Part shown: positions 6,001-57,143 of the stretch, one piece after another
Layout of the letters: each line of letters begins with the position of its first letter
Position numbering within the stretch: the first letter of the stretch is position 1
From: Candidatus Woesebacteria bacterium
GTDB lineage: Bacteria; Patescibacteriota; Microgenomatia; UBA1400; UBA12028
Reading direction: 5' to 3'
Length of the DNA stretch: 64,000 bases
NCBI GenBank assembly: GCA_040006915.1
Contig: JBDTWD010000002.1
Span: 158,475-222,474 of the forward strand
The notes under the pieces: model-generated
What the model was told of the DNA's origin: nothing
The model's input: the letters and a program-made list of their open reading frames with translations, nothing else
Databases searched by the model: none
Position numbers and translations under genes: made by a program

Positions 6001-9000
6001 GTAACGCAGCCAGCTGCAACTTAAAAGTTGGCGTCACCAACGCTACGACGATCGATGTTGGGACTACCGCAGCAACGGCAATAAATATTGGCGCTGGTGG
6101 AGCGCTGGCACGCAATATCGCTATCGGGACTGGAACAGGCGCCGATACCATCAATATTGGTACCGGAGCTACTGGCGCTGATGCCATCACTATTGGAAAT
6201 GCTGCTTCCACAACTGCCCTAGCCTTCAACTCAGGAACCAGCGCTCAAACATTTACCTCACAAGTCCAAACAGGCACTACGACTACATCTGGATTTGTCT
6301 TCGACGCGACGGCAATCAATACCGGAACTGGTCTGTATCTGACTTCAGACAGTATCACTACCGGAAAATTAGCACAGATTGCTACGACTGGGAACACATT
6401 AACGACCGGTACACTCCTCGATGTTAATTCAACCTCAACAGCCGTGACAGGATCTTCAACGGGGCTGCTTGGATATTTGAACTGGAACCCTGGGAGTGCG
6501 ACTACTGCCACTGGTGACCTCTTTAGAATCAATATTGGGAGCAATGGGAACGTTGGAAATCTCTTTAATTTGACCGACAATGGCACCAGTCTTTTCTCAG
6601 TCTCTGAAACACAAATCACCAATGCCCTTCCTACCTCCTTTACTGCCGCTGGTGATGTATCATTTGCCAATGACATCCAATTTACGAATCAAGTCGCAAG
6701 CGCCATCAAGAGCAAAGCTCCTCTCACTATCGAAGCTGGAGAGAGTTTTGAAAGTAATGATTTAACACTCCATCCCTACAATGCAGGCAGTGTCGTCATT
6801 GATGGCTCTACCACTCCAACGACCAGTACCACAGGACTTTTGAACATCAATGCGAATGCGGGAAATGCTGCAGTGATCGCATCAAACATCAATTTGATTC
6901 AAGACAATGGAGCAACCGCCGCAGTCGATGCTATAGGCCAACAGATCAACCTCACTGCAAATGATGCTGATGGAGATGTCTTCGGTTTGAAGATTGCTGC
7001 AGCTGCAACAACAAACGCCACTACCGGATCATACGAAGCTGGTATCACTATCGATAATGCTGAAGACACCGCTGCTTCAATGACCGACGGAATTTTAATT
7101 ACTTCATCTGGAATAAACAACGGTATCACCGACGCGATTGACGTGAGTGCGGCAAACATAAATAACGCTATCAATCTTGGTGCCAATTTTGAGCTGTTCG
7201 ATGGTATCAGAATGTTTGAGGGAGCGACAGGAACCCTCACTATTGAGGATACTTCCGGAAATGACATCGCAACCTTCGTCGACGGTGGCACCACAGGAAG
7301 CTTGACGGTCACCAATACCATCTCGGCTCAAGGAAACTCTATCGGATTAAATAACGATGCCAGCGCGAACAACGTTTTGGCCTTTGGCACTGGACCAGGA
7401 GCTGCGACTGGAGATCTGTATTGGGGTGATAAGTTGCTCTGTACCGCAGCATCAGCAAACTGTGGCTGGGGTGCAGCAGGAGCCGGTATGACGAGCTTTA
7501 CAGCCGCTGGCGACTCTGGATCAAACCAAACAATTTCAGATGGCAATACCTTTGCCATCAGTGGGGGTACGAACGGAATTGATACCGTCGGTGTCAACAC
7601 AGATATCATCAGACTCGATCTCGACACCACTGAGATCAGCGGCACTACTTCTTCAGGAGCAAGTACCTTTAGTGATGGCACCCAAGCGAGTATCGCCTGG
7701 ACCTTTAATACCTCTGGGGCTACAGACCCTATCCTGACTATGGCCAACAGCTCAATCACATTAGGAAATGCAGCTACGATCGTCTCAGATCAGGCCACTC
7801 TCGCTGCCTTTAATACGACGACAACAGATTTGAGTATTGGTGGTGCGGCAACCACATTTAATCTCGCTGCTGGCGGCGCTCTCGCTCGTGCAATCAATCT
7901 CGGAACGGGGACTGGAGTGGATACGATCAATGTCGGCACAGGTGGTACTGGAGCAGATGTTATCAATATCGGAAGTACGAATGCTGGAAATGTATCCGTA
8001 AAATCAAATGCCGTCTTGAATCTGACTGGCGGAGCCAACTCTGTAATTGATTTTCCAAACTTTGATGTCGCTACCACTGGAAATGTCACCACTGCGACTG
8101 GAACAGGAATTGACTGTAATGCGGCAAGTTGTAACTTAAAAGTTGGTGCAACAAACGCAACAACAGTAGACATCGGTACGACAGCAGCGACGGCAATTAA
8201 TATTGGTGCTGGTGGAGCTTTAGCACGTAACATCGCGATTGGAACTGGTACGGGAGCAGATGTCATTAATATCGGTACCGGAGCAACAGGTGCTGATACG
8301 ATCACCATTGGAAACAGTGCTTCGACCACTTCACTAGCCTTCAACTCGGGAACTGGATCACAAACCTTTACTTCTCAAGATGCCACTGGGACGACTACGA
8401 GTTCTGCTTTTGTCTTTACTGACAACGCTCTGAGCACTGGCACAGGCATGTATTTGAATTCAAGTACCATCACGACTGGAAAGCTCGCACAATTTACGAC
8501 AACGGGAAGCACTCTTACGAGCGGATCGTTACTGGATCTATCCTCTGCTGCGACTTCGATTACCAATGGTTCAAGTATCGCAAATGGCGGAACCTTTGCC
8601 GGAAGTCTTTTAAATATCAGTGCCACGGGTGCTATCTCTAGCTTTGCTGGAAACTTAGGTACTGTCGACTGGTCTCCAGGCTCAGCCACCAATGCGACAG
8701 GAAATCTCTTTACCATTAATATCGGAACCAACGGAACAACCTCTGGAGATTTGTTCCAAGTCCAAGACTCTGGATCTGATTTGTTTGCCGTCAATGAGAG
8801 TGCTATCACTTCTTCTATCCCCCATAACTTTACTGCAGCTGGTGACCTCTCAGTCGCGTACGATCTGTCCTTTACCAACCAAACGGCCAGCACAATCAAG
8901 ACTCTCGGACCACTCACTATCGATGCTGGAGAAAGCTTTGAAAGTAACAACTTGACGCTCCACACCTACAACTCAGGGAAAATAATTGCTGACGGTGGAT

Positions 9001-10889
9001 TTTCGTTCAACGAACAGCAAGCACTTACAGATAGCACCACACCTGATGTTGGTGGGGCATCGTACTTCTTAGAAAACAACAGTACGAACAGAGTTGTCAC
9101 AAACTTCTTGAATGGAACTGCAGGACAAATTATCTATATCGAGATTGGAACCGCAGCTAACTTTGATCTTGCCTGTACAGCCTCAAAGATCAGTTGTGGA
9201 AGTACGACAATCACTGCCATGGCGACAGGTGACACGATTGCTCTTCTCTATGATGGAACCACTTGGAATCTTTTAAGTTGGATGGATCAATCTGCTAACA
9301 ATAGTGACAATACTGATGGTGTCGACTTGGCCGAATTCTTCCCAAGTTCAGACACCCTTGAAGCCGGAGATCTTATCAGTATCGATGGATCCAACCCTGT
9401 AACTATCAAAAAAGGCACTGAGACTGATGGACAAAAAGTAGTTGGTATCATCTCTACCCAACCAGGTCTCACTCTGGGACAAGAAGCACCAACATCCTAC
9501 AAAGTAGCTTTGGCCGGTCGAGTTCCAGTGAAGATTGATCCAAACTCACCAGAGATCCATATCGGTGACTTCATCGGCGCCACTGGAGTTCCAGGTAAAG
9601 CCAAGAAAGTCGCCGGTGGCTACACAGTTGGTCGAGCTTTAGAGAACTGGCAACCAGGATCAGGAAAAGACACAGTGACTGTTTTTGTTAGTTCCATTTG
9701 GATCGACCCAGATATGGCCTTGAGCACCAGTGGTGATATCTCTATTGCCCAAACTGTTGATGGACAGATGAATACCTCATATAACCTGGTCGATCCACGG
9801 GGGATCATGAACCGCATCGGGGAATTTGCAGATGCCGTGATCGCAAACTTGCGCGTCGGAAAGTTAAGTTCCACCGAGATTGCTACCAGCAACTTAAAGA
9901 TCAATGGCAAAACCGTCCAAGAGATTGTCTCTGAAGCTGTCACCCAAGCGACTGCAGGTGCGACTCTGGCCACCAACGTCGTCACCAAAGATGAAGCGGG
10001 CAACGCCACTATCTCTGGAAACTTGACTGCACATGACGCTACTATCTCTGGGACACTCTATGCAGATCGTATTAGCGGACTCGATGGAATTACTTCTCTC
10101 CTGGGTAGTCAAAATGCCTCACTCTCTGCTTTAATCTCTCAGTTTAATAACTGGAATAGCTCCGCTTCTGCAGTCCTCTCGGCTGATGCTGTCTTTGCCA
10201 ATGAATACTTAAACGTCCAAGGAACAGCAAGTATCACCGATGCCATGATAAACCACACTCTGATCGTCGGTGGCAGCTTGGCTATGGATCACAACTCAAT
10301 TAACTTACTTTCTGACACCGAAGATACTCTCTATCTGCAAGCAACCACTTCTGGGAAACTGGATCTCTTGGCTGGAACAGTGACCTTATCTGCTGACGGT
10401 GGACTGTTTGTAAACACTGACGCAGTGTTTGCCAAAGATCTCACCGTCAAAGAAGACTTGATCGCACACTCGCTCAAGAGTGATGGACAGGTTCTCGGTA
10501 TCCAACTTGCGAGTGAAAGTGGAAAACTAACCGTCAGTGACGCCAACAGTACTGAAGTCGCGAGTATCGATGCCTCTGGATCAGCAACCTTTAGTAAATT
10601 GGCTCTGACCCACACGGCAACCAGCTCAGCCAATGTCAACCTCGACGCTTCTGCAGGAAAAGGCACATTGCCATCTGGTCAAACAGAGCTCGTAATCTAT
10701 ACGAACCAAGTAACCGAAGATTCTTTGATCTATATCACGCCGAACAGTAGTACCGAAAACAAAGTTCTCTATGTCAAATCCAAGGTTGCCAAGGATGAAA
10801 ATGATCCAGAATCTGTGGGTAGCTTCACTATCGGTGTCGATAGTAGTATTAGTAACGACGTAAAACTTAACTGGTGGATCATAAACTAA
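3..10889 (+). CDS. Giant fibrous surface/adhesin-like protein, 5'-partial (more than 3624 aa in window). Thr/Gly/Ser/Asn/Ala-rich beta-helix-like repeats, internal 100-250-aa duplicated modules, and a distinct globular C-terminal module (aa ~3100-3624).
   Basis: Uninterrupted ORF from the window edge; the frame is open at nt 3-14, so the gene continues upstream. Composition is dominated by T/G/S/N/A with recurring GTGxDxIN, NxGxG and LxVxG motifs. Long modules occur twice, for example LVRIGTGATANAQLDMYASDGDTGSLVY and GIDCNAASCNLKVG. The terminal ~500 aa lose the repeats and contain motifs such as DLAEFFPSSDTLEAGDLISIDG, VALAGRVPVKIDP and GDFIGATGVPGKA, reminiscent of fibre-terminal domains. 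Confidence 0.7.
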   Translation, partial: ADSAVTTAKLNDGAVTNPKLGDGSVSTGKVADEAITEPKLLSSNDGTNGYVLSYNSSTGGFTWIPGSTDSGFSDTGTLITLSTTTDDVNIGGLTDLGKLAVVGDSDETQLLVRGDFSQTVPVFDIQNSSGTSFFNVSAAGVITIPGLDCTTNANAGTLTADASGVISCQDDDGGGASSPFQTTSSVANLIISTNDTTLGSAIDLAKFAVDGDSNEIQFLIQGNGTQTNFLGVFEQSSGVDVFTIANNGDLVTAGDIAVNGGDITTTSTTASIFNSNATTINFGQAATTMNIGVLGGTTTIASNVTITGTLTTASSNFAADGAATFSPSGTNDVTMNLDADSTLILNGVQSGTASNALCLDGSNNVITCQSAVTITLKDAYDNDPNGSNVTIPLTSADDSIIFQNPAAAGTDSGYVFLVDQLNTGNVDGIQIDQAGTGDSIQLTNASTGSFLNLSATGVGTTADGISIVNTSSGVITDAIDASDAEIVNALNTGANTILGTTAVIDFTNFDVDGSGNITASGNIVASTNETINGIDITAGTVSDVVNLTINGGGDLTIGAIGLNDTGTSNTDSGASLVGTFDEFTNSNGTTVQGVLKDLDSAIGAGASKWTDGGAITYLTSITDDIAVGATNTLVAPFSVDVSANLVRIGTGATANAQLDMYASDGDTGSLVYNTSDQFNFTGGDVLIGQALTVTGNTTANGDLTANGTFTLGDNGDAGAIDTNDWDISTTGVFTGVSGITTNGGYTQSGAGTNLFTGATTISGGTTLLRNLTVNSGTTQNVASVAFTSPVDTSGTNVTQGLSITPTIGNASGGTNTVNVFNIDGTTGDAQVTLNAINVGALSGGTGASEIAINVGTGWDSLLSVNSSTVINGSGVLQSNGLSGTYSNALTLSSTSNAITAGTLTINTDAFTDLTGNGLAISTGSLGVNLTTSGGSGSTSSNSGLEVSSAGLTLLKGCAQDEILSWDDAGSVWICNSVTGAGGGTGDITAVGDVTSGAAFTQTAGADGTTLYFEGSTTDGNEIALTTADPGADITVTIPNIAGTLASLAGTQSFTGAKTFSAASIFDGTITANTDTDFALAGSENITLTNASASTDQLALAVSGVTTTGVNGLSVAFTQADDVDATDSNAAVNVALTSSSGDADTLYGLKFADFTAGAATENAIHFGTGFDNLFDIEGNTADGNDTLVTYAEPTGSRSIIIPDDSGTICLSSGNCAGGAGGSKWTDAGAVTYLTATSDDLAVGGTTLASPFSIDVSANLVRIGTGATANAQLDMYASDGDTGSLVYTTSDQFSFTGGDVLVNQALTANGTFTLGDNGDTGAIDTSDWDISTTGVLTGVSGITTNGGYTQSGATANTLTGATTISGGTTLSRTLAADATAQNVASVTFTTPADTTGTNLNQGISITPTIGNATAGTNTANIFNIDALTGDAQVTLNAVNIGALTGTGATETAINIGTGWDNVLSVGGTPVINGSGQLVSTQITGTLFSTNSDSGSSTVVQGDTLAINGGTNGINTALSGDTYTLNFDSTEVGTTTWNAGGTDPTWTFNTSGGTDPTLAFANNQITVGNAATLTATAVTTFNCTNCINFDDISDTLVLDAATTITRTSTTTSEDSLAFSLINNGGTAGTDRAFVISNGLSGNSSGDVTTESLLTLDQADSTAGGNTAVTDGLLITNSGGSTFTNAITIGSGSQAISTGLNIASTGVTTDISLQNGETIDNNVDGTIQLTAANTALSGDLAISGGNITTAFTADSTVTVTGTTTANGSLVANGIFTLGDNGDTGAINTSDWDISATGDMSGIGAITADGAIAFTPGSTSDITFTLDSDSTLILAGVQTGTASNGLCLDSSNNVITCSTAGSTTLQSAYNSDVDGSDTIIALTTADDSLIFRNPASSGTDSTYILTLDQLANSSVGGLNITQAGTGAGIAMTFSNAGTTTDGLIINNSAGTVTDAIDVSDATGFTNAINVGANTILGTTAAIDLTNFDVAGTGNITTATGTGIDCNAASCNLKVGVTNATTIDVGTTAATAINIGAGGALARNIAIGTGTGADTINIGTGATGADAITIGNAASTTALAFNSGTSAQTFTSQVQTGTTTTSGFVFDATAINTGTGLYLTSDSITTGKLAQIATTGNTLTTGTLLDVNSTSTAVTGSSTGLLGYLNWNPGSATTATGDLFRINIGSNGNVGNLFNLTDNGTSLFSVSETQITNALPTSFTAAGDVSFANDIQFTNQVASAIKSKAPLTIEAGESFESNDLTLHPYNAGSVVIDGSTTPTTSTTGLLNINANAGNAAVIASNINLIQDNGATAAVDAIGQQINLTANDADGDVFGLKIAAAATTNATTGSYEAGITIDNAEDTAASMTDGILITSSGINNGITDAIDVSAANINNAINLGANFELFDGIRMFEGATGTLTIEDTSGNDIATFVDGGTTGSLTVTNTISAQGNSIGLNNDASANNVLAFGTGPGAATGDLYWGDKLLCTAASANCGWGAAGAGMTSFTAAGDSGSNQTISDGNTFAISGGTNGIDTVGVNTDIIRLDLDTTEISGTTSSGASTFSDGTQASIAWTFNTSGATDPILTMANSSITLGNAATIVSDQATLAAFNTTTTDLSIGGAATTFNLAAGGALARAINLGTGTGVDTINVGTGGTGADVINIGSTNAGNVSVKSNAVLNLTGGANSVIDFPNFDVATTGNVTTATGTGIDCNAASCNLKVGATNATTVDIGTTAATAINIGAGGALARNIAIGTGTGADVINIGTGATGADTITIGNSASTTSLAFNSGTGSQTFTSQDATGTTTSSAFVFTDNALSTGTGMYLNSSTITTGKLAQFTTTGSTLTSGSLLDLSSAATSITNGSSIANGGTFAGSLLNISATGAISSFAGNLGTVDWSPGSATNATGNLFTINIGTNGTTSGDLFQVQDSGSDLFAVNESAITSSIPHNFTAAGDLSVAYDLSFTNQTASTIKTLGPLTIDAGESFESNNLTLHTYNSGKIIADGGFSFNEQQALTDSTTPDVGGASYFLENNSTNRVVTNFLNGTAGQIIYIEIGTAANFDLACTASKISCGSTTITAMATGDTIALLYDGTTWNLLSWMDQSANNSDNTDGVDLAEFFPSSDTLEAGDLISIDGSNPVTIKKGTETDGQKVVGIISTQPGLTLGQEAPTSYKVALAGRVPVKIDPNSPEIHIGDFIGATGVPGKAKKVAGGYTVGRALENWQPGSGKDTVTVFVSSIWIDPDMALSTSGDISIAQTVDGQMNTSYNLVDPRGIMNRIGEFADAVIANLRVGKLSSTEIATSNLKINGKTVQEIVSEAVTQATAGATLATNVVTKDEAGNATISGNLTAHDATISGTLYADRISGLDGITSLLGSQNASLSALISQFNNWNSSASAVLSADAVFANEYLNVQGTASITDAMINHTLIVGGSLAMDHNSINLLSDTEDTLYLQATTSGKLDLLAGTVTLSADGGLFVNTDAVFAKDLTVKEDLIAHSLKSDGQVLGIQLASESGKLTVSDANSTEVASIDASGSATFSKLALTHTATSSANVNLDASAGKGTLPSGQTELVIYTNQVTEDSLIYITPNSSTENKVLYVKSKVAKDENDPESVGSFTIGVDSSISNDVKLNWWIIN
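1022..8375 (+). repeat. Intragenic long-range duplications in the giant gene. Module pairs: ~1022-1565 vs ~5476-5990, ~1822-2595 vs ~3667-4395, ~5941-6265 vs ~8059-8375. Roughly 75-85% nucleotide identity, with protein motifs conserved.
   Basis: The translated segments align almost residue for residue, e.g. SKWTDGGAITYL...GTGWDSLLSV vs SKWTDAGAVTYL...GTGWDNVLSV, and NFDVAGTGNITTATGTGIDCNAASCNLKVG...FTSQ twice. Nucleotide differences are mostly synonymous. Confidence 0.8.
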
Positions 10890-13800
10890 TGAGAATGAGA
10901 AAACATCGACTTACCATCAAGAAAAATCAACGTACTCTAATAATAGTGGGTGGCATCGTCGCGTTGCTTCTCACCGTGGGCCTGATAGGGATTTTCATTC
11001 ATTCCAGAAAAAAAACTGAACCAAAAGCTGCTCCTGCGATACAAACCAAAACTCCATCGGTCGATGAAAAACCAGAGCTGTATTATCTGTCCATCAAAGA
11101 AGTCACTGAAATGTTTGGAGCGAAAATAGCTAAAGATGCCAAAGGCCAAACGCGCACTATGAAGACGATGGCTGGAAAAATGGAAGAATTTGTTCCTTAT
11201 GTCGTCGTTCCTGATGGAAATACCACGAATGTCTATTATCGTACGGATAAAGGAATCGAACGCTATAGCTTTTCCCCGTCGACTATCGATGTGGCTTTAT
11301 CTGAAAAATCTCAAGACAGCAAGGATTTTGAAATACAGTCTACGTCTACTCCAATGTTTCAATATAAAGATGGTGAAGCCTGGTTGGATTATGAAGAAAA
11401 ATCTGCAGTCAGCATTCGAGTTGATAAAGGCCCTGATGTCGCAACTATTACTCAAAAAACTAAAGCCGGAGCTAACGACGCCAAAGTTACCTGGAAATTT
11501 GGCATCCAAGATCAACGTCTCATTTTAAAAAACACCTTTGAGTTAAGTGATACAAAGCATACGAACCGCCTACTCTGGACTATCTCTTTTCCCAAGGATA
11601 AAAAAATTATCAGTAGCGATGATGAAGCCACCATGCACCAGACAGAAAACATGGCGAAGAAGCGCATTAAATTGGGGAATGTGAATATCGGTTGGGATGA
11701 TTTTAACGAACCCACTAAAGCAGCGTTGTCTGCAGCGAATCAAACTCTCATCGTGCTCTTCTATGAAGATGGGATCGAAGGTAACTTGACCATTGACCCG
11801 ACTTTGACGACTACTGTGAATGCTGCCGCTTCTGAGATTGATATCGAAGTGACTGACGGAACACGCTGGTGGTGTTTCGGGAAAAACCCCCAGGAGACTG
11901 CTGCCACCAGATCTCTCTTTCAACCGACGCGCATGTTCCATTCGAGCATTTCAGCTCCCACTAATTGTACGACTGGTGGAGATGATTTTTTGCCAAATAA
12001 CGCGGGATCTTTACATGACTCTCCACTCTTTTCGGGAACCAACGGCTTTACCAGCACTTCAGCGATTACGGTAAACCTCCTAGAAACCACCGCTACCAGG
12101 GCGCGTGTACAAACCTATAAAGACAATACTCTTGATAGCCGAGGATTATTTACTGTGTATCCCAACGGCTATGGATATTTTAACTATGCTCTAGGAACTG
12201 CAAACAGCCTCGACCAAAGCTACACCTTCTCTGAGCATTTCAAATCAGCTAATGCCCAGACTGAACTCTTTGATAGTACCAACCGAACCTATGTGATCGC
12301 AGATACTTCAAATACTAACTATGCTGGAGTCTTGGGCATAGGGTATCAGATTCTTGGTATCCCTCTCATGCCAGATCTTGCAAATGACAGCCCCAATGAC
12401 CTAGTACAGTACTGGAATTCGAACACCACCACGACGAGCCCAGCTCAAGGAACAAAAACGAGTTCCGCTTGGACAGGTTTGCTTGACCTTTCTGAATATC
12501 GAGCGTCAAATTTCACTAAAGATGTGAAGCTTGGAGATTACCGTCTTCCTGATGATGTTTCCGACGGTTTAACAAATTCTGTTCTTTGGGATGATGCTGG
12601 CGAACAAGCCAAGTACTTTACTGGTTTTGAGGGGGCAGATACCGACTTATGTGGTGGTGGGGATGGATTCACCACAGGCTCTTGCAACGGCGATGACACG
12701 GCAGTGGGTAATGATAAATCTAATGCCTACAGTGGTACCTATGCTGCACACTTTGATGGAGGCGCGACGACCACTGATGTCGCCTATGCACAGCTCACGA
12801 TGGATGCAAATCCTCGGCAAACGGTTCGCTTTATGTTAAAGGTAAACACCGAGACACTGGGAACGAACCAGGAAATGACTATTGTTCGTTTCATTGATGG
12901 GTCGAACAATACGAACGGAAGTCTCGCCTTTAGACAAAATGCTTCGAATCAATTAGTGCTCTGTGTCACCCCACAGCGAGGTGGAACAGGCGGTACACAA
13001 GTGTGTGGTACTACTGTCCTCTCGACCGGAACTTGGTACGCAGTAGAATTTACGAATACCTCCGGTATTACCAGCGGTACTTCCTATGGAAATCATGTAC
13101 AAGTATTTTTAAATGGCGTGGTTCAAGCGACAAGCGTACAAAACGTGGCAGCGGCTGTTACCACGACAGCTATGCGTATGGGATTAGTCGTCACCTCAAC
13201 TGCTAATAACGATATTTATATCGACAATGTAGCAATCGACTATACAGAAACCGGTATCCCTGGTTTTAACGCAGCAGAAGGTGCCTATACGCTCCAACAT
13301 GCGAAATGGGGATCAGATCTCTCTGTCGATCTAGATAGAGGAGGAAAAATTGCTAGCGGCTCTGCTTTCAAAATTCGTGGCTGGCAGTCACAAAATGATC
13401 CTACAAGCGTAAAGCTTGAGAATACACAACTCATCAATGGCACAGACTTTAATGCCGATGTTCTCCCTTTCTCAGAATCTTGGGTTAACGATTCTGATGG
13501 CACGTGTGGGACTGGTGGATGGCAAAAGCTTGCTAACGGTGGTGATCTGACCAACTCGAGTGAGTACCTGATGCGAACCGATAATGATTATAACTTCAAT
13601 AATGGTGGCAGCGGCAATAACTGTACTTTTGGTGACTCTACCACTGATGCGCTGTACTTTGGACGCACGGATCAATTTTCGGGATTAAACGTACTGCTAT
13701 CCACGGTTGGAACTGATAATTCTCTTCTTCATGTCACCTGGGAGTACTGTTCAGTCAATACTGACGTTGCCACGGCTTGCGATACGTGGAGCACACTGTC

Positions 13801-16800
13801 AGTCACATCATCACCTACAGGAGTTTCAGATTTTGTCGATAACGGATCTATCAGCTTTACTCCACCCTCCCAGTGGATTAGATCACGCGAGAACTCTGGT
13901 CGTGAAGCCTTATATTTTGTGAGGGCTCGGGTAACATCAGCTGGATATGGTACCTATCCAGTCGAACAAAAGATCACCACCGATATTCTGGCCATGCAGT
14001 ATCAAGGGACACTAACTCAAGATGATCAAACATTTACATTTTCGACCACTTCCCCAGTCGGAGTCTGGAAAATTGATGAAGGGAATGGGACGACAATTGG
14101 AGATAGTACTGGCCTTGGGAACAGTCTCACTATCAATGGCGCCGTATGGAGAGGAGATGGACAAAGAAATAACTCCAGTACCAAACGCGCCACCTATCTT
14201 CATTTTGATGGCAGCAATGACTTTGCCTCAAGGGCTAATGATACTGATTTTAATCCGGGGGGTGAAGCGTTCACTCTGACTGGCTGGTTCCGTCATCCCT
14301 TAGCAGTCTCAGGGACGGATACAATCCTCGCCCACTATGGGACGGCAGGATATAAAGTCTATATGAACTCTTCTGGCAATATTTGTTTTGGAATCGATGA
14401 TGATAGTTCATGGGGCCCCGATGATAGTGCCTGTACCACTACCACCTATACAGATAGCACCTGGCATCATTTTGCTGCTGTGAGAAATGGCGTGTTAGGA
14501 CAAATCGGAAGTCAAAGTAACCTTATGCTCTATATCGATGGAAAATTTCAAGCATCAGATGGAACGATCAGTGCGAAAGGGTCGCTAGATACGAGTAGTA
14601 CTCTTTACTTTGGAATTGATTCTGATGGCAGTAGTAATCCTTGGGATGGTGAAATTGATGAAGTGAATTTCTATCGTTATGCGCTGACTGCAGCCCAAGT
14701 TTTAGCAGATATTCCTGATCCTTCTTCTGCTTTGGTGGGTAACAATCCTACCGATCCCCTGACAAATGGACTCGTGGGATGGTGGAAAATGGATGAGAGC
14801 ATAGGGAATCTCTGTAGTGGAGGAACCAATGACACTTGTGATTCTTCTGGGAATGGATACGATGCTGCCTGGGGTGGGAATGCGACGAGTAGCGCAGTGG
14901 CAAAATTTGGATACTCAACGATATACGATGGCTCCTCAACGAATGCTGCTGGGGATGTACTGGACTTTGAGCGCACACAACCATTCTCGCTGGGTACTTG
15001 GATCAAAACAACCACAGATGGGGCTCAATCGCTCATCACCAAGCAAGACGACAGTTCCCCTTTCTCTGGCTACAATCTCCAGTTTGGATCGAGTGGCATA
15101 CTCTATTTTCAACTTGTTAATACCTTCACGACGAACAATATCCAAGTTCAATCGACAAATGATCTCAGTTACAGTGATGGAAATTGGCATTACGTGGCTG
15201 CTACCTATGATGGCTCTTCAAAAGGCGTTGGAGTACGTTTGTATTTTGATGGGACAGAAATCCCAGTTACGGTATCGATGGATAATCTCTCCGCTACCAC
15301 AGTCAATGCTATTCCCCTTAATTTTGGTTCCCGAAATAGTAGTACCCAAAAATTTACAGGGAATCTAGATGAAGCGCGCATCTACAATCGGATCATCTCT
15401 CCTGCTGAGGTACGAGCTCTCTACTCCTATGCTCCTGGACCAATGGGATATTGGAAATTTGATGAAGCTAGCGGTACAAGCGCCGCAGATTCCAGTGGAA
15501 ACAACTATAGTGCCACGATTACAGATGCCGGAACAGTTGGTGGGTTTGAACCTGGTATCTATGGGAATACCTACAACATGAAAGGGTTTAACGGAAGTGG
15601 CGCAGACTGGATGCCAATTTCAGGTACAATAAATCTTGGGAGTGTGAATACGATCTCATTTTGGATTAACGGAAATCAATTGAGTTCCACCGGACATACA
15701 ATAGGAAGTAGCCGAACCGTTACAGGAGGCGCCGGAGCTGATCCCCAAGGCTATATGGCCTTTATCGATGATGTGAATCTGTATTCACGTCAAAGTATTA
15801 ATCCAGGGGCAGTCAGCGTGGCTCACGGAATGGTCGCCGGTACTTGGTATCACATAGAAGTAGTTCGCGATGGCACCTCCGTCAAGTTTTATAAAAATGG
15901 TGTTCAGTTAGGAACGACTCAAACCTACGGTGCTAGTAAACCATATCTTTTGTACAACCTGACAAATTATGATAGCAGTTTAAGTACAGCAGACTTTCCT
16001 GTTGACGGAAAACTCGATGACGTACGCGTTTATAACTACGCACGAACCCCGCAGCAAGTTGTAGAAGACATGAATGCTGGACATCCTTCTGGCGGTTCTC
16101 CAATAGCAACCCAACTGCTTTTTTGGAGAATGGATGAGATGTCAGGAACGACTATTAATAACTCTGGATATGGAGGTAGTACATATAATGGTACGGCAAC
16201 AGGGACAGTCTGGAACTCAGCAGCAGCGTGCGTAGGACCAAGCCCTTGTTTGTATCTAGATACAGATGCCGATACAGTGAGCGCCGGTGCCGTGACGGTC
16301 ATCAATGGTGCAAGTGCATTTACTTTCAGTACTTGGTTAAAGCCTGCCCTCGTTTCAACAAATTCCATGATTTTTTCTAAGGCTGACGTCAGTACAGATC
16401 GTTCCTTCCAAATTAAAACGGACAATACAACAGCTTCAGAGATCAAAGTTATGGTTCCTGTTATTTCATCCGATACTTCTACGTATTTTGTCACAAGCGG
16501 TTTTGGATTATCAACGACAGGAGCACAACTGACAGTGGTATACGATGGAACCCAATCAAATGCGAATAGAGTGAAGGTGTATAAGAATGGAAAAATCGTT
16601 GCTGGATCTATAAGCGGGACACTCCCCTCTACCATTACAACCAGTAGTGAGAATCTTAAACTTGGGAAAGGTGATGATACTGGATCAAACGCTTTGCACG
16701 CACTCTATGATAACGTTAAATTTTATACAGGAGCCCTCACCCCCGATCAAGTCATTATGGATTACAACGCAGGAGCGGCAGCAAATTTCGGGACAGGTCC

Positions 16801-18241
16801 TACTGAGGCAACTCAATCTGTTGATGGAATTGGCTCAGATCCAGTTGGCTATTGGGCTTTGGATGAAAACACAGGAACCACTGCCAAAGATAAGAGTGGC
16901 AATAACTCTGATGGAACCTTAACCAACGGTCCCGTTTGGGTACAGGGAAAAATTGGACAAGCGGTGCAATTTGCTAATACAACAAATAAAATCACCATCC
17001 CTGATAATTCCAATCTCGATATTGCTGACGGTGAGGATGTCACAATCACTGGATGGTTTTATCGTGCTGATGCCACCGACAGTAATATGATCACCGCCAA
17101 ACGTACAGGATCTGCGGCAGCGAATACAGGATGGCTTTTGTATCTGGACGGAACCATTGATACGCTGTTGTTTGAGATCGCAGACGGCGCCCAGGAGTAT
17201 AGCGTCCAATCTGCTCGGACCTTTGTTACGCCAGGTTGGCATCATTTTGCAGTTGTTTGGGACGAGTCTTCAGCAGCGGGAACAAAAGTATTTATTGATG
17301 GCATCGACAATACGGGAACAAAAACTGGAACAATAGGCTCAATTGGGAATGCGTCAAATGCAACTGCTATGGATATTGGAAACTGGGAAGGCACTTCTAG
17401 TCCCATGGAGGGAATAATTGATGATCTAAAGTTCTATAAATATACTCGCACGGCCAGTCAAATTGCGTATGACTATGACCGTGGCAAAGCCATGCATTGG
17501 TGGAAAGCCGACGAATGTACTGGTACTACGCTCAATGACTCTGGAAATGCCAATACCCTGAGTAATGGTACGATCACAGTCGGAGTAACCGGCACAAATA
17601 CTACCGCAGGATCTTGTACGGGAAGTACTTCTGAATTATGGAAAAACAGCGCCACCGGAAAGTTTAATAGTGGTCTCTATACTGATGGGACGGATGACTA
17701 TGCAGATTTGGGGGATCTTCCGAATACAGAGACACAATCCCAACTCTCGTGGTCATTCTGGGTGAACCCTACCTCCCTCGCGACTGCAAAATGTATTTTT
17801 TGTAAAGCCAATTCTGCTGCCACGCAACAAGGTTGGTTCTTCCGTACCGATGCCAGCACCAGTACGACGCTGCGGGTAGGCATCCCCACAGGGACTACCG
17901 ACCAAAGTACCTACGGAAGCGTCACTACGGCACTCAGTAATGGGGCATGGAAACATGTAGTGGCAGTGTTTGATGGCACTGCGACTGGCAACAGTAATAG
18001 ACTGAAGATTTATATCAATGGAAAACTGCAAACCACTACCTATACTGGGACGATACCCGCTGCTACAACTGCGACGACGAGTAATGCCAGGCTGGGTGCT
18101 GCCTCGGATACGACTGATTACTTTAATGGGCGCACTGATGATGTCAGAATCTTTAGCTACCCCCTTTCTTTGCAACAAGTTCAAAAGTTGTATAGTGATG
18201 ATGCGAGCGTCCGTTTTGGTCCAGTCACTGGATCACCATAA
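10889..18241 (+). CDS. Membrane-anchored (N-terminal signal-anchor) multi-domain LamG / concanavalin-A-like lectin array protein of about 2450 aa, paralog of the next gene.
   Basis: ATG at 10889 overlaps the upstream stop by 1 nt (TAATG); an alternative GTG lies at 10874. The N-terminus MRMRKHRLTIKKNQRTLIIVGGIVALLLTVGLIGIFI has basic residues followed by a single TM. At least 10 repeats carry the LamG_3 signature (WKFDE..GT...DSSGNG......W..G.FG.AL.FDG.DD, then W.H.A..YDG....LY.NG, then DDVRIYN.AL...E...LY), joined by APGP linkers. The C-terminal tail is ...YPLSLQQVQKLYSDDASVRFGPVTGSP. Confidence 0.75.
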   Translation: MRMRKHRLTIKKNQRTLIIVGGIVALLLTVGLIGIFIHSRKKTEPKAAPAIQTKTPSVDEKPELYYLSIKEVTEMFGAKIAKDAKGQTRTMKTMAGKMEEFVPYVVVPDGNTTNVYYRTDKGIERYSFSPSTIDVALSEKSQDSKDFEIQSTSTPMFQYKDGEAWLDYEEKSAVSIRVDKGPDVATITQKTKAGANDAKVTWKFGIQDQRLILKNTFELSDTKHTNRLLWTISFPKDKKIISSDDEATMHQTENMAKKRIKLGNVNIGWDDFNEPTKAALSAANQTLIVLFYEDGIEGNLTIDPTLTTTVNAAASEIDIEVTDGTRWWCFGKNPQETAATRSLFQPTRMFHSSISAPTNCTTGGDDFLPNNAGSLHDSPLFSGTNGFTSTSAITVNLLETTATRARVQTYKDNTLDSRGLFTVYPNGYGYFNYALGTANSLDQSYTFSEHFKSANAQTELFDSTNRTYVIADTSNTNYAGVLGIGYQILGIPLMPDLANDSPNDLVQYWNSNTTTTSPAQGTKTSSAWTGLLDLSEYRASNFTKDVKLGDYRLPDDVSDGLTNSVLWDDAGEQAKYFTGFEGADTDLCGGGDGFTTGSCNGDDTAVGNDKSNAYSGTYAAHFDGGATTTDVAYAQLTMDANPRQTVRFMLKVNTETLGTNQEMTIVRFIDGSNNTNGSLAFRQNASNQLVLCVTPQRGGTGGTQVCGTTVLSTGTWYAVEFTNTSGITSGTSYGNHVQVFLNGVVQATSVQNVAAAVTTTAMRMGLVVTSTANNDIYIDNVAIDYTETGIPGFNAAEGAYTLQHAKWGSDLSVDLDRGGKIASGSAFKIRGWQSQNDPTSVKLENTQLINGTDFNADVLPFSESWVNDSDGTCGTGGWQKLANGGDLTNSSEYLMRTDNDYNFNNGGSGNNCTFGDSTTDALYFGRTDQFSGLNVLLSTVGTDNSLLHVTWEYCSVNTDVATACDTWSTLSVTSSPTGVSDFVDNGSISFTPPSQWIRSRENSGREALYFVRARVTSAGYGTYPVEQKITTDILAMQYQGTLTQDDQTFTFSTTSPVGVWKIDEGNGTTIGDSTGLGNSLTINGAVWRGDGQRNNSSTKRATYLHFDGSNDFASRANDTDFNPGGEAFTLTGWFRHPLAVSGTDTILAHYGTAGYKVYMNSSGNICFGIDDDSSWGPDDSACTTTTYTDSTWHHFAAVRNGVLGQIGSQSNLMLYIDGKFQASDGTISAKGSLDTSSTLYFGIDSDGSSNPWDGEIDEVNFYRYALTAAQVLADIPDPSSALVGNNPTDPLTNGLVGWWKMDESIGNLCSGGTNDTCDSSGNGYDAAWGGNATSSAVAKFGYSTIYDGSSTNAAGDVLDFERTQPFSLGTWIKTTTDGAQSLITKQDDSSPFSGYNLQFGSSGILYFQLVNTFTTNNIQVQSTNDLSYSDGNWHYVAATYDGSSKGVGVRLYFDGTEIPVTVSMDNLSATTVNAIPLNFGSRNSSTQKFTGNLDEARIYNRIISPAEVRALYSYAPGPMGYWKFDEASGTSAADSSGNNYSATITDAGTVGGFEPGIYGNTYNMKGFNGSGADWMPISGTINLGSVNTISFWINGNQLSSTGHTIGSSRTVTGGAGADPQGYMAFIDDVNLYSRQSINPGAVSVAHGMVAGTWYHIEVVRDGTSVKFYKNGVQLGTTQTYGASKPYLLYNLTNYDSSLSTADFPVDGKLDDVRVYNYARTPQQVVEDMNAGHPSGGSPIATQLLFWRMDEMSGTTINNSGYGGSTYNGTATGTVWNSAAACVGPSPCLYLDTDADTVSAGAVTVINGASAFTFSTWLKPALVSTNSMIFSKADVSTDRSFQIKTDNTTASEIKVMVPVISSDTSTYFVTSGFGLSTTGAQLTVVYDGTQSNANRVKVYKNGKIVAGSISGTLPSTITTSSENLKLGKGDDTGSNALHALYDNVKFYTGALTPDQVIMDYNAGAAANFGTGPTEATQSVDGIGSDPVGYWALDENTGTTAKDKSGNNSDGTLTNGPVWVQGKIGQAVQFANTTNKITIPDNSNLDIADGEDVTITGWFYRADATDSNMITAKRTGSAAANTGWLLYLDGTIDTLLFEIADGAQEYSVQSARTFVTPGWHHFAVVWDESSAAGTKVFIDGIDNTGTKTGTIGSIGNASNATAMDIGNWEGTSSPMEGIIDDLKFYKYTRTASQIAYDYDRGKAMHWWKADECTGTTLNDSGNANTLSNGTITVGVTGTNTTAGSCTGSTSELWKNSATGKFNSGLYTDGTDDYADLGDLPNTETQSQLSWSFWVNPTSLATAKCIFCKANSAATQQGWFFRTDASTSTTLRVGIPTGTTDQSTYGSVTTALSNGAWKHVVAVFDGTATGNSNRLKIYINGKLQTTTYTGTIPAATTATTSNARLGAASDTTDYFNGRTDDVRIFSYPLSLQQVQKLYSDDASVRFGPVTGSP

Positions 18242-18243
18242 TC

Positions 18244-21200
18244 ATGTTCTTTCGTCATCGATCCCACCAAAATCAGAAGAAATCACTGCGGCGAATCTAC
18301 GTACTCGCCGCTACTATTCCTTTATTAGTTGTACTCATCCCTCTGGTGTACCTGAGTTTAAAGTTTGCCGCACAAAGTGAAGCCGCTTGGTTTGATGATA
18401 CCTACCGCTATCGATCACCTATTTCCTTTACACATAACGCTGCACTTTCCAATCGCCGTGTCAGTATCACAGTCGCTACTGATGCCTTAGTTACTGCTGG
18501 CAAGCTGCAGTCAGATTGTGATGATACTCGATTTACCGATATCAACGGAAAAGTTCTGCGCTATCAATTGGTCTCTGGATGTAACACGTCGACGACCCAA
18601 TATGATGTGGTTTTTCCTACGATCATCAATGGCGCGAATGTTTCATACATGTATTACGGAAATTCTACGGTCGCTTCTGGCAGTCAAGATGTCTCTGGAG
18701 TGACGAGCTTGTCTCCTTCAGGTGGAAGCCCATCTGCAGGCACAGAGGAAAAAGGCACCAGTCCGGTATTGTACTTAGGACTTGATGAAGGCTATGGGAC
18801 AACTACCCAAGATGGAACTTCTGGAAATAATGATGGGACGCTCTCTAATACTCCGACTTGGAAATCCCCAGATTTTTGTATTTCAGGAAACTGTATTCTG
18901 TTTGATGGCTCCGATGACATTGTCACAGTTACAAATGCAAATCCCATCGATCTTGACGCATCTGGCGGATTGTCTGCTGGATTTACGATGGAAGCTTGGG
19001 TACGACCCAATGGTGCCGGTGAAGGCACTGGAGGACAAATCATTTTTAAAGGAACCAATACCTGGCTTAAAGTCGCCTCACTCTCCAGTGGGAAACTTGA
19101 TTTGATGGCTAGTCTCGATCTAGCCACCACAGATGCAACTCTGACTGCAAGTGGAAAAGTTCTTGATGGTCAATGGAACCATGTGGCAATTTCCTATACC
19201 GATGATGCAGATGATGAACTGACACTCTGGGTGAACGGAGTGTCGGTTGGATCTTCAACGAACGGGGTTGGTTCTCTCGCTGCTGATGTCAACAACCTAG
19301 TTATCGGCGGAACCACGACCAATAACTTTAAGGGAACTATCGATCAATTTAAAATCTACAATACTGAACGAACCAGTAGCCAAATGGCCAGTGATGCGCT
19401 GAAAAGCGGTGGCAACGACACCGTTGCTACTCAACTTGGAGGAACTGCAAATACGAGCATAAGTAACGGCCTCGTTGGTTTCTGGCCCATGGATGAATCT
19501 GCAGCCAACACCTGTAGCGGTGGAACCAATGACTCGTGTGATAAATCAGGGAATGGTTTTGATGGAGCTTGGGCAAACAATACAGCTGCCATCACTGGAA
19601 AATATGGATACGGAACCGATTATGATGGAACAGATGATAGCACTGCTGTCTCTGACAATGATGCTTTTTCCGTTAATACCACGAACTCATTTACAGTCTC
19701 AGCTTGGGTAAATCCCGATACAAACTCTGGTACGGTAAATATAATTTCTAAAGGAAATACCAGTAATTTCGAATGGAGTTTAGGTGCAAGTACCACACAA
19801 GCCCAGGCAATTCTCTGGGATTCAGGTGGATCTGTTATCGCCCAAGCAAATATTAGCACCCTGTTTTCCACTGGCTCATGGCAACTCTATACTTTTACGG
19901 CAGATCTAAATTCCAATACCCTCACGATTTATCGTAACGGTGTGTTAGGAGGCACGGCGACAATCGCGGGAACCTATACTAATGGGACCGCCAACTTGCG
20001 TTTTGGAGAACGTGCCGATGGCTCCAATGATTATGATGGGAAAATCGATGATGTCCGGATTTATAACCGTGCCCTTTCTTCAGGTGAAGTGATGCGCTTG
20101 TATACCACGGCCCCGGGACCTTCTGGATACTGGAAATTTGATGAAAAAACCGGCACGACTAGCACCTTTGATTCCTCTGGCAGTGGCTTTACTGGCACTA
20201 TGAATAGTATAACGCAAAGTAGTTGGACAAATGGAAAATTTGGGAGCGCCTTGAACTTCGTTAAAGCCTCTACTCAAGACGTCAACTTGGGGGTGACTAC
20301 GACGCTCTTCCCCAATAGCAATTCCTGGTCATACGGATTTTGGTTTAAATACACTCCCGTAGTCGCTCCAACAGCAGATGGGTTTTTAGTTTCACTTCGA
20401 ACTTCAACCAATCGCGCCAATGCATTTTTTATCCGCGACTCAGGTGATTCACTTTCATTTACCTATCGGTCAGGCGGCTCGAACACTTTCATCACCCTTG
20501 CGACCACCGCGTCTATTGGAAATAACTGGCATCATGTCATGGCAACATATGATGGCACTACCTACCTTATTTATGTCGATGGAGTGTTGACAGCTACATC
20601 AACTGCCGCTCAAGATGTTTTCGGCACTGGGACAGTCCGAGTCGGGAGTGATTCTGGTTCCAACAACTCCGATGCAGTAATCGATGACCTACGAGACTAT
20701 AATTATCCCCGAAGCGCCTCCCAAGTAATCGAAGATATGAATGGAAGTCGTCCGATTAATGGCGGTTCTTCCTCCTCGTCGTCAATCTACTGGGAACTGG
20801 ATGAACAAAATGGGAATACGATTAATAACTCTGGTTCAAATGGGAGTACATATAACGGTACCAATAGTGGTGCCGCTTGGCTCACCAATGCGAGCTGCAA
20901 GATCAACGGCTGTTTAAATTTTGATACCACGACCGACACGGTGAGTGCTGGTGATCCGGTTTTTATCGATGGCCTGACTGGATTCTCCACCAGCTTCTGG
21001 CTCAATCCCCAAACCTTAGCCACCAATAAAATGATTCTCTCCAAAGCCAATAACGTGACACAACGGGTATTTCAAATTAAAACAGATGACGCCACAAGTA
21101 CAGAGCTGAAGGTGATGATCGCTTCCTCTGCCTCAGACACCAGTAATTACTGTATAACCTCCGGATTAGGGCTGACAGCTTTAACCTGGCAACAGATTCA

Positions 21201-29840: not shown

Positions 29841-30866
29841 ATGAAAAAAAATACACGCTCACTTCTCTTTGCCGGCATTGCAGTCCTCCTGATTGCAATC
29901 GTCAGTATCGTTGGAGCTAGATATCTTTCTCAGTCTTCGACTGAAGATCGGTCGAAAGCCACTAACTCAAATACCGCAACCTTCACGACCGATCAGAGCG
30001 AAACAGCTGATGAAGTGACAGTAAATGTGTATGCCGATCTGGGTCAATTGCAGGATACGCAAGTGCGTCAATTTGCAGTATCAGTAGAAGTTGCAACCCA
30101 GAGTAGCGTGTTAGGAGTAAGTACGAGCGCAAATAGACACATTAGTCATAGTACCGAGACAGATCAACGACAGGATGAGGTGTTGAGGACGAAAAGGAAT
30201 CCGTGGGCCGCATTCGCCTCTCCTTCCCCAGGTACAAAGGTTTGTTTTACAGATGTAGTAGCCAATGGAGAAAGTGCTTCGTGGACAAGCACATGTAAAG
30301 GAGACAGTACAAAAGTAAATTGTGTAAAGAGATCCATTCCTCTAACAAATGAAGAGCAACTCATGTACCAAGCTTGGGTTGATCTAGGAAAAAGCCAAAA
30401 AACTCAATGTCTCTTTGTCAAAGGAATAGCAGTTGCCACTGTTACTCGTACAAGACCTGCAAACCTGAGTGCGTCACCAGCTGCAGTCGCACAAAATCTA
30501 CCAGCTGCCACTGCTACTACCGTCCCTACTCCAACTCCTGCTCCAATATTACTCACGCAAACAGCAACACTCAGTGTGTTTAAACCAGGTGAGAATCTGT
30601 TTACCTATACTCCTCCTCAAGTTTCATCTACTACCCAAGGAACAACGATTGTTTTAAGTGGAAAAGTAGAGAACAGTCAGCAACAATCAAAATTAACTGG
30701 GAAAGTTCTGATCGCCCAGATCAAAATAAAAAAGTCTTCTCCAGCTCAGCATCCTGTCATCACCCTGATCAACCAAAGTTTGAAAGGGGTGCGATCAATT
30801 GCTCCAGGAGTTGAAGTTGAACTGCTTGAAAAACCAACTCCTTCAGAGATCCCTGTACAACGGTAA
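29841..30866 (+). CDS. N-terminally anchored hypothetical protein (341 aa), co-transcribed with the FN3 protein.
   Basis: ATG lies 2 nt after the upstream stop. N-terminal TM (LLFAGIAVLLIAIVSIVGA). Cys-containing ectodomain with no recognisable family. Confidence 0.5.
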   Translation: MKKNTRSLLFAGIAVLLIAIVSIVGARYLSQSSTEDRSKATNSNTATFTTDQSETADEVTVNVYADLGQLQDTQVRQFAVSVEVATQSSVLGVSTSANRHISHSTETDQRQDEVLRTKRNPWAAFASPSPGTKVCFTDVVANGESASWTSTCKGDSTKVNCVKRSIPLTNEEQLMYQAWVDLGKSQKTQCLFVKGIAVATVTRTRPANLSASPAAVAQNLPAATATTVPTPTPAPILLTQTATLSVFKPGENLFTYTPPQVSSTTQGTTIVLSGKVENSQQQSKLTGKVLIAQIKIKKSSPAQHPVITLINQSLKGVRSIAPGVEVELLEKPTPSEIPVQR

Positions 30867-38914: not shown

Positions 38915-38958
38915 CCTACTATTGTACCAGAGAAAAGACGGTTTCTTCGGTGAACTCT

Positions 38959-54956: not shown

Positions 54957-54970
54957 AGTTTTCCTTAAAG

Positions 54971-56800: not shown

Positions 56801-57143
56801 AGCTACCCTTTCGCTTGACATTCCTATCAAAAATTGATAGGTTGATACGCGAGAAGCCCGTCCTTAGGAAATAACATGTAAGGTCAGGATTCTTAAACAT
56901 AAAGCATTGCTACACGTGTCTTTCCAAGGTCAGCGGTAGTAATGCTTTTTTTGTGCGTTCTGAGCCTAGTATAACACCACCTCTTTTCATGTCAACCTAT
57001 AGTAATTTATCTTCGTTTTTTAGAACGTCCTGTAGTATAATATTTAAACAAAATACCCTTGAAAACACAGAGTTATCCACATGAAAATAGAGATATTCAT
57101 TCTATGGTGAAAACGTGTGTTCAGGGTGGAAAACGAAGATACT

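Follow-up and report, generated by a model that had tools for sequence, protein, structure and literature searches.

Several described enzymes of the Wzy_C superfamily resemble the protein considered here. A Wzy_C membrane domain followed by C-terminal tetratricopeptide repeats (TPR) has been reported for PglL and WsfB (PMC2943079). WsfB of Paenibacillus alvei and WsaB of Geobacillus stearothermophilus are Wzy_C enzymes of Gram-positive bacteria that are proposed to glycosylate a large surface-layer (S-layer) protein; WsfB has its own TPR, and a TPR protein is encoded alongside WsaB (PMC2943079). TfpO (PilO) and TfpM are encoded directly 3' of the substrate gene, and the extreme C-terminus of the substrate matters (PMC9829042). 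The placement of O-oligosaccharyltransferase (O-OTase) genes next to their target genes is a known pattern (PMC3643930; PMC9829042). We analyzed a 64,000-nucleotide stretch of DNA (hereafter the window) from Candidatus Woesebacteria, contig JBDTWD010000002.1, positions 158,475 to 222,474 of the forward strand. This lineage was confirmed to belong to the Patescibacteria, or candidate phyla radiation (CPR). In the window, a gene denoted W, encoding a 694-aa protein of this kind, follows the genes of three giant surface proteins, A0, A1, and A2. An earlier sequence-only reading had proposed that W glycosylates a Ser at the extreme C-terminus of A1 and A2. We found that W-like genes lie preferentially directly 3' of giant surface-protein genes over deep divergence, and that the C-terminal tail shared by A1 and A2 is conserved. 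We tentatively propose that W modifies these proteins and that the tail serves as a docking tag.

We first consider W itself, which is a Wzy_C/O-antigen-ligase superfamily protein (WaaL/PglL fold) with a TPR domain predicted to face outward. The Pfam Wzy_C family (PF04932) matched W below threshold (17.9 bits against a gathering score of 31.7), while a Parcubacteria relative scored 28.9 bits and 8 of 16 aligned relatives matched the family (best E 2.5e-15). A full-length W profile searched against PDB sequences was swamped by TPR matches and was trimmed to the N-terminal 440 aa. The sole PDB sequence match of the trimmed profile was 9rmk_A, 'Oligosaccharyltransferase' (E 0.0024), which we take to be PglL of Neisseria from the position of H349. 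In this alignment ...RFSGAHNLPL... of W pairs with ...LFTHSHNIVL..., placing H285 opposite H349, presumably the essential His of Neisseria PglL. The closest solved fold to the AlphaFold2 (AF2) model of W (predicted local distance difference test score, pLDDT, 81; predicted template modeling score, pTM, 0.79) was WaaL (7tpj/7tpg), and the TPR domain resembled TPRs that bind peptides, as well as PilF and PilW, two TPR proteins of pilus biogenesis. W has 11 transmembrane (TM) helices, and the short loops contain six Lys and Arg residues on the N-terminal side and one on the opposite side. This charge distribution favors an N-in topology, in which both the large loop (residues 220-286) and the TPR domain are extracellular, an arrangement also seen in WaaL and PglL. 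The fold and the relatives thus bear out the earlier assignment of the protein as Wzy_C plus TPR, and the TPR domain is predicted to be extracytoplasmic.

W shares with PglL, the general O-OTase of Neisseria, the Wzy_C TM domain, the aligned His (H285/H349), a TPR-type extension at the C-terminus, an active loop that faces outward, and a gene position often near target genes. In contrast to PglL, the sequence match of W is marginal, no pgl-type glycan genes are located near it, and most W-like members in the CPR lack the His. The host of PglL is diderm, whereas the CPR are thought to lack an outer membrane, and the putative CPR targets are repeat adhesins of 1500-3600 aa. WsfB and WsaB, to which W is likened by description, differ in being encoded within slg clusters together with glycosyltransferases, none of which are in the window. 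WaaL has no TPR domain and ligates O-antigen to lipid A-core, an acceptor that is not expected in the CPR.

A1 and A2 were confirmed to be tandem, coupled giant proteins of 2450 and 1554 aa. The A2 ATG is 2 nt past the stop codon of A1, and the likely ATG of A1 in turn overlaps the stop codon of A0 (TAATG). The mechanical A1 open reading frame (ORF) starts at a GTG at 10874, giving a 2455-aa translation, but the ATG at 10889 is the likelier start. Both N-termini have a basic stretch followed by a single hydrophobic helix and are signal-anchors, in agreement with the sequence-only reading. Laminin_G_3 (PF13385) matched A1 and A2 with E values of 1e-108 and 1e-124. Using a profile built from the terminal LamG domain, we counted seven LamG units in A1 and six in A2, lower than the 7-10 per protein given before; DUF2341 was found at the A2 N-terminus. 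An NCBIfam match to the fimbrial protein TafC was dropped, as it reflected only the LamG domain of this archaeal Tat-fimbria subunit (PMC11821415).

Both A1 and A2 end in ...ASVRFGP(V/S)TGSP. The last 27 aa, previously described as a shared tail, are identical at 21 of 27 positions, compared with 38% identity over the last 235 aa. However, the LamG_3 Pfam profile ends at residue 2437 of the 2455-aa GTG-start translation of A1, and the first ~12 of the 27 residues (YPLSLxQ[VI]QKLY) form the strand and helix with which the LamG_3 domain ends, so the true tail is ~15 aa. The tail is unique in the window as had been claimed: no other ORF of at least 80 aa has the motif at its C-end, and the only other ORF with an SP end encodes the 1556-aa protein A3, located downstream of W.

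The LamG tail is a C-terminal peptide with a free carboxyl end, ASVRFGPSTGSP-COOH. Orthologous loci in which W is 41-52% identical retain the order of LamG gene followed by W, and their tails are SSVFFGPATGSP, SSINFGPAIGSP, GGVNFGPSTGQP, SGVRFGPQTGSP, SAIQFAPSSGQP, and GAVRFGPSTGSP. A tail-alignment scan with one genome per species yielded 77 loci, and the informatively named ones were all Patescibacteria. The tail was found widely across the CPR, in lineages that include Woesebacteria, Daviesbacteria, Levybacteria, Roizmanbacteria, Amesbacteria, Shapirobacteria, Saccharibacteria, Paceibacterota, Gribaldobacteria, and WWE3. ORFs ending in [FYW][GAS]Pxx[GAS]xP were present in 47 of 82 loci. A LamG homologue search with the single terminal domain found six proteins, while a 49-sequence profile gave 420 matches in the protein collection; the full tail was present in 60 of 123 proteins from the LamG search. 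Public Patescibacteria DNA and proteins provided 108 distinct full-tail 16-mers. Position -8 was always F or Y (F in 86%), and position -3 was always G, though the search pattern also permitted A and S; P-6 and P-1 were imposed by the pattern, from which the terminal Pro in all 108 tails follows. The tail is better conserved than the LamG domain before it (domains ~35% identical across lineages) and is not a chance feature. A sorting signal of the LPXTG, PEP-CTERM, or GlyGly-CTERM type was ruled out, because the protein stops at the motif Pro and no TM helix follows. Two short-tail LamG loci (L088 and L089) are frameshift-fragmented assemblies without W nearby and are uninformative.

We then analyzed the linkage between tail-bearing genes and W-like genes, which were detected in the tail-found loci with a hidden Markov model (HMM) of the TM domain. 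A W-like gene was located at most 1.7 kb 3' of the tail-bearing LamG gene, on the same strand, in L008, L009, L011, L014, L021, L025, L029, L036, L039, L041, L055, and L078; the HMM found no W-like gene elsewhere in those twelve 20-kb loci. Pairs were found in loci of Woesebacteria, Daviesbacteria, Paceibacterota, and Gribaldobacteria, and the LamG-to-W synteny was observed in orthologues at 41-79% identity. A W-first sample of 80 metagenomic loci was collected with a four-sequence loop alignment of a clade 28-30% identical to the window W. In this sample, 36 of the 71 loci with upstream sequence encoded a protein with a LamG C-end at most 2.5 kb 5' on the same strand. When all loci were pooled and redundancy was removed, 65 evaluable W-like genes remained. 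Of these, 36 (55%) were at most 2.6 kb 3' of a LamG-type C-end gene on the same strand, and 11 (17%) followed a large protein with a different conserved end, NWW. The co-occurrence anticipated by the sequence-only reading was thus found far above expectation.

The C-ends of the W-adjacent LamG proteins include ...VVKFGN, ...VVNFGY, ...ALRFGN, ...VQFGQ, ...VRYGPNN, and ...TGTPAP. W is therefore linked to giant surface proteins generally and not to a terminal Ser. Under the first proposal, in which W resembles TfpO/TfpM and attaches glycan to the C-terminal Ser or to the Thr/Ser within TGSP, the tail would be its sequon. TfpO and TfpM do glycosylate the C-terminal Ser/Thr of the protein encoded directly upstream (PMC9829042), the window W keeps the catalytic-type His, and the tail is predicted to be exposed. 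Among the 108 full tails, position -4 was T or S in 87% and position -2 was S or T in 68%. However, the last residue is Pro rather than Ser/Thr, and position -4 was E, Q, I, or M in the other 13%. Position -2 was S in 58 tails and T in 15, but in about one third of the tails it was another residue (A in 13, Q in 10, L in 6, N in 3, P in 1, and H in 1); syntenic orthologues end in ...GQP. Since -2 and -4 vary and the last residue is never Ser/Thr, the tail has no universal hydroxyl residue. The W-adjacent ends listed above, from ...VVKFGN to ...VRYGPNN, have no terminal hydroxyl, W-like genes are also found 3' of NWWIVN-type proteins, and T-G-S is accounted for by homology to an internal FDExTGTT repeat start, described below. 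TfpO and TfpM further differ from the 694-aa, TPR-containing W in being 420-470 aa long and described without TPR (PMC9829042). These two enzymes modify the terminal Ser/Thr residue of a type IV pilin, whereas A1 and A2 have plain signal-anchors and are not pilins, although pilin-like genes adjoin W-like genes in four other loci. We regard a terminal Ser or Thr acceptor as very unlikely.

The NWW end represents a further conserved class of C-terminal motif, the second one associated with the W-like family. In the 11 non-redundant loci mentioned above, the large protein directly 5' of the W-like gene ends in [FL]NWW[IV][IV] followed by 0-9 residues. A0, which is T/G/A/S-rich and has no Pfam family (one relative has a weak Peptidase_S74 match), ends in ...VKLNWWIIN (peptide DVKLNWWIIN-COOH) and belongs to this ...FNWWIVN class because it has the same [FL]NWW[IV][IV] C-end. 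In L083-85, an A0-type protein (...FNWWIVN) precedes W, and three pilin genes take the place of the LamG genes. NWW-class upstream proteins were recorded in L083 (2293-5943), L085 (1-5964), L093, L097, L137, L153, L166, L168, and L169. A third C-end class, ...T[ST]P[ST][YF]xxI[ST][AG]P, was seen 5' of W-like genes in L118, L150, L154, and L165, on proteins of 1900-2100 aa, except in L154, where it is on a 250-aa contig-edge fragment.

All nine ORFs with a prepilin motif in the 1.49 Mb of fetched DNA were less than 4 kb from a W-like gene, in four independent loci, which points to a role in surface appendages; no prepilin motif was found in the window. These loci are L005 (11111-11572, -), L009 (10799-11608, +), L083 (6045-7118, -), and L085 (6124-7792, -). 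Several Parcubacteria-type loci have an ORF of 190-250 aa with similarity to IS200-like Y1_Tnp in the same place, between the LamG and W-like genes (L009, 10208-10768; L025, 10172-10918; L036, 5718-6419; also L039 and L041). In L025, FtsZ is immediately 3' of the W-like gene, and in L019, FtsW/RodA is 3' of the tail gene.

To characterize the origin of the tail, we compared it with the internal repeat junctions of A1 and A2, which read ...RLYTTAPGPSGYWKFDEKTGTT..., ...DYNRGGPVGWWQFDECSGST..., and ...DQNNGSLNFGTGSNEAT.... The tail, ...KLYNQNASVRFGPSTGSP, aligns with these junctions over a helix, a short linker, and the pattern h-[RK]-F-x-x-x-[TS]-G-[ST], and matches the internal form YWKFDEkTGTT. 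Judged by this alignment, the tail is the first strand and turn of what would be the next LamG repeat, the rest of which is absent. This homology to repeat starts explains the T-G-S pattern, so that no sequon is needed. In an AF2 model of the last two repeats (pLDDT 82, from a 115-sequence alignment), the internal WWQFDE strand was confident (pLDDT 86-96), while the terminal tail had no secondary structure (pLDDT 67 falling to 48). AF2 therefore does not support the idea that the tail caps the last LamG domain as one of its integral strands. Because AF2 leaves the tail unfolded, it appears to be a strongly selected linear motif that is exposed, and not a fold element; it is a conserved, and probably exposed, C-terminal motif across the CPR.

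The match to internal repeat starts also fits a reading in which the tail is a truncated-repeat strand and the adjacency of LamG and W genes is inherited synteny without direct interaction. Consistent with this, ~45 of 113 terminal LamG fragments terminate immediately behind this strand (...GAVSFN, ...GAVNFQ, ...AVRFGP, ...AVRF), and many tail genes have no adjacent W. The type of neighbor follows the W clade moderately, with a nearest-neighbor concordance of 38 of 65 compared with 26.2±4.4 in shuffles. On the other hand, the tail is left unpacked in the AF2 model, F-8 and G-3 are near-invariant despite the permissive pattern and across domains of ~35% identity, and the adjacency persists at 28-30% W identity in several CPR classes. 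We consider it quite unlikely that inherited synteny is the whole explanation.

We next analyzed residue conservation in 72 non-redundant W relatives. The basic residues K42, K96, K245, K/R267, and R/K280 were conserved at 89-99%, and the loop core (G253, G255, N272, W277, and F281) almost everywhere. The TPR surface was conserved at N500, N506, N542, N578, N582, R546, K573, and D575. This pattern suggests, at the level of sequence, that lipid-pyrophosphate binding is retained and that there is a conserved protein or peptide ligand, but it does not prove canonical OTase chemistry. A His in the large loop is needed for the activity of the Wzy_C enzymes WaaL, PglL, and TfpM (H286 in TfpM) (PMC9829042). 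The window W keeps the catalytic-type His (H285), while the residue at this position among the 72 relatives was R in 27, S in 13, N in 10, H in 7, G in 5, T in 5, and A in 2. Compared with the family consensus, the clade of the window W has Thr for D75, His for R/S285, Thr for E294, and His at 295, and its active site may be re-wired.

The loss of the OTase-essential His from ~90% of the W-like family, with Arg as the commonest replacement, could indicate that W is not a protein O-OTase. W could instead be a Wzy- or TacL-like polymerase or ligase for a surface lipoglycan or wall polymer, and the LamG arrays would bind or work with this polymer, explaining the linkage. TacL is a Wzy_C-family lipoteichoic acid ligase of a Gram-positive bacterium, and the closest solved fold to W is the lipid-acceptor ligase WaaL. 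In L083-85, W is retained in the same syntenic slot without LamG genes, and LamG domains belong to a carbohydrate-binding superfamily (PMC11821415). However, the TPR domain and the position directly 3' of very large secreted proteins in ~70% of loci fit protein recognition better, the sole PDB sequence match is a protein OTase, and no polymer-synthesis genes were found in the window. A glycopolymer enzyme is in our judgment unlikely.

The same loss of the His in most of the family would also fit a protein with little or no catalysis, whose TPR domain outside the cell binds free C-terminal peptides to tether or assemble the giant proteins. The TPR domains of Hop and PEX5 bind C-terminal peptides in this manner, and that of W resembles peptide-binding TPRs, PilF, and PilW. 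The strong conservation of the TPR surface (including N500, N506, N542, N578, N582, R546, and K573) and the existence of two upstream protein classes, each with a conserved extreme C-end, are consistent with such a scaffold. However, the TPR is matched in its conservation by the TM domain and the basic residues on the extracytoplasmic side, which argues for retained lipid-pyrophosphate binding or catalysis, and the short-tail and extended (...TGTPAP) variants break the fixed C-terminus. We give a purely scaffolding W little credence. We think it improbable, though slightly less so, that the LamG and NWW C-ends are tags read by the TPR of a WaaL-fold enzyme that couples the giant proteins to a lipid-linked glycan or envelope polymer. 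If true, this would be a CPR-specific form of surface display, with sortase/exosortase-like logic on an O-antigen-ligase scaffold.

The reading that we favor, to which we assign somewhat less than an even chance, is that W is a CPR-specific PglL/WsfB-type Wzy_C–TPR enzyme that modifies the adjacent giant surface proteins, with the tail as a docking tag. A0, A1, A2, and W would form a surface-appendage module typical of the Patescibacteria. W would take a glycan pre-assembled on a polyprenyl-pyrophosphate carrier and move it en bloc onto hydroxyl residues of the giant proteins encoded just 5'. Recognition of the protein would fall to the TPR domain, a role also proposed for that of PglL and that of WsfB, the S-layer O-OTase of a Gram-positive bacterium. 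The conserved C-end ...aVRFGPxTGSP-COOH is a repeat remnant kept as an exposed linear motif and not the conserved acceptor; most plausibly it would be a tag that the TPR domain, or some other partner, recognizes or docks onto. Low-complexity Ala/Pro/Ser/Thr-rich regions are present in the juxtamembrane linker of A1 and the C-terminal extension of W, and by analogy these are possible PglL-style acceptor regions. A further analogy is provided by TMTC1-4 and TMEM260, polytopic lipid-linked-sugar transferases with a luminal or extracellular TPR that modify arrays of β-sandwich adhesion domains (TMEM260: PMC10214176). In contrast to W, they have a GT-C fold like that of protein O-mannosyltransferases and transfer a single mannose from dolichyl-phosphate mannose, and we claim no homology. 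TMTC1-4 and TMEM260 are TPR-containing O-mannosyltransferases acting on cadherin or IPT β-sandwich domains.

Several observations weigh against this proposal. Gene adjacency alone does not show a direct enzyme–substrate relation, and the linkage is not obligate: 18 of the 65 W-like genes have neither type of giant neighbor, and a W-like gene is absent within 2-10 kb of many tail-bearing LamG genes. In 65 of the 72 relatives the position of the His is occupied by R, S, N, G, T, or A, with Arg even in the same-slot syntenic orthologues P0006 and P0010, and the clade of the window W lacks the family-typical D75 and E294 (both Thr). Among window ORFs of at least 120 aa, none was found to encode a glycosyltransferase, a flippase, or an initiating phosphoglycosyl transferase; glycosyltransferase genes are near W in some relatives (L002 and L085).

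A0, A1, A2, W, A3, and a small gene denoted B form a tight same-strand block at window positions 15-30866 (+).

Table 1 Features of the gene block and of its products in the window.
Feature	Position	Strand	Description
A0	15-10889	+	At least 3624 aa, running past the 5' window edge; giant fibre-like surface protein, first gene of the block
A1	10889-18241	+	Signal-anchored LamG-array protein, 2450 aa from the ATG, 7 LamG units
A1 C-terminal tail (candidate tag)	18194-18238	+	SDDASVRFGPVTGSP, past the end of the last LamG_3 domain
A2	18244-22908	+	Signal-anchored, 1554 aa, DUF2341 and 6 LamG units
A2 C-terminal tail (candidate tag)	22861-22905	+	NQNASVRFGPSTGSP; unstructured in AF2
W	22965-25049	+	694-aa membrane protein, WaaL/PglL fold (Wzy_C superfamily), C-terminal TPR domain
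W residues 220-300, large extracytoplasmic loop	23622-23864	+	Core SW..A.D..K...G.GP..Y..F..[KR]P...N....W..[RK]F...HN
W residues 430-636, TPR domain	24252-24872	+	Predicted extracytoplasmic; surface Asn-rich, highly conserved
W residues 637-694	24873-25046	+	C-terminal extension, disordered, Pro/Ser/Thr/Ala-rich
A3	25169-29839	+	Secreted, 1556 aa, Ig_Rha78A_N, PKD, and fn3 repeats; ends ...VIASP
B	29841-30866	+	341 aa, signal-anchored, without known family, coupled to A3

An A3 and B pair (1449 and 337 aa) is also located 3' of W in the closest long-contig relative. Other products encoded in the window include ABC-2 transporter proteins, Obg, a response regulator, AdoMetDC, EamA, LPG_synthase_C, a histidine kinase, an M23/LysM peptidase, Rho, a sortase, and RadA. 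The sortase-domain ORF, which the sequence-only reading had also recognized, was confirmed in the region of 51451-52833 (-) and 52869-56830 (-). One of the two large sortase-adjacent ORFs carries DUF11-type repeats, and no LPXTG-plus-TM sorting signal was found by pattern in any window ORF, including these two. The Obg ORF (37637-39154, -) is 505 aa, compared with 414-435 aa in relatives, and the mechanical ORF call may have produced its long N-terminal extension artificially; the ORF that overlaps it (38959-40311, -) is 450 aa and without family.

All related loci were from Patescibacteria, and the nearest correctly named ones were from Woesebacteria. L009, L012, L013, L016, L021, and others are titled 'uncultured Gammaproteobacteria' or 'Pseudomonadales' (binchicken/SRP metagenome-assembled genomes), while their gene content is that of Patescibacteria. 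These titles look mislabelled, given the Patescibacteria genes, the synteny with Woesebacteria, and one complete chromosome of 0.81 Mb.

The architecture and logic of the module are already known, and it is not a new kind of system. The earlier statement that it represents a substrate class not described for O-OTases was overstated, since Wzy_C–TPR O-OTases acting on Gram-positive surface-layer proteins have been published (PMC2943079). We found no description of the CPR W-like family or of the tail in the literature searched, which is not proof of novelty. The CPR-wide W-like family, the frequent loss of the His, the two giant-protein pairings, and the two C-terminal motifs appear undescribed in that literature.

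In CPR bacteria, which live attached to other microbes, the giant surface proteins are the leading candidates for recognizing the host. The recurrence of the module across the phylum provides a concrete handle on surface glycosylation or display in the CPR, and would widen the known range of Wzy_C–TPR enzymes. The W-like members in which the His is replaced, if active, would bear on the mechanism of the whole superfamily, which is also of relevance to the enzymes used for glycoconjugate vaccines.

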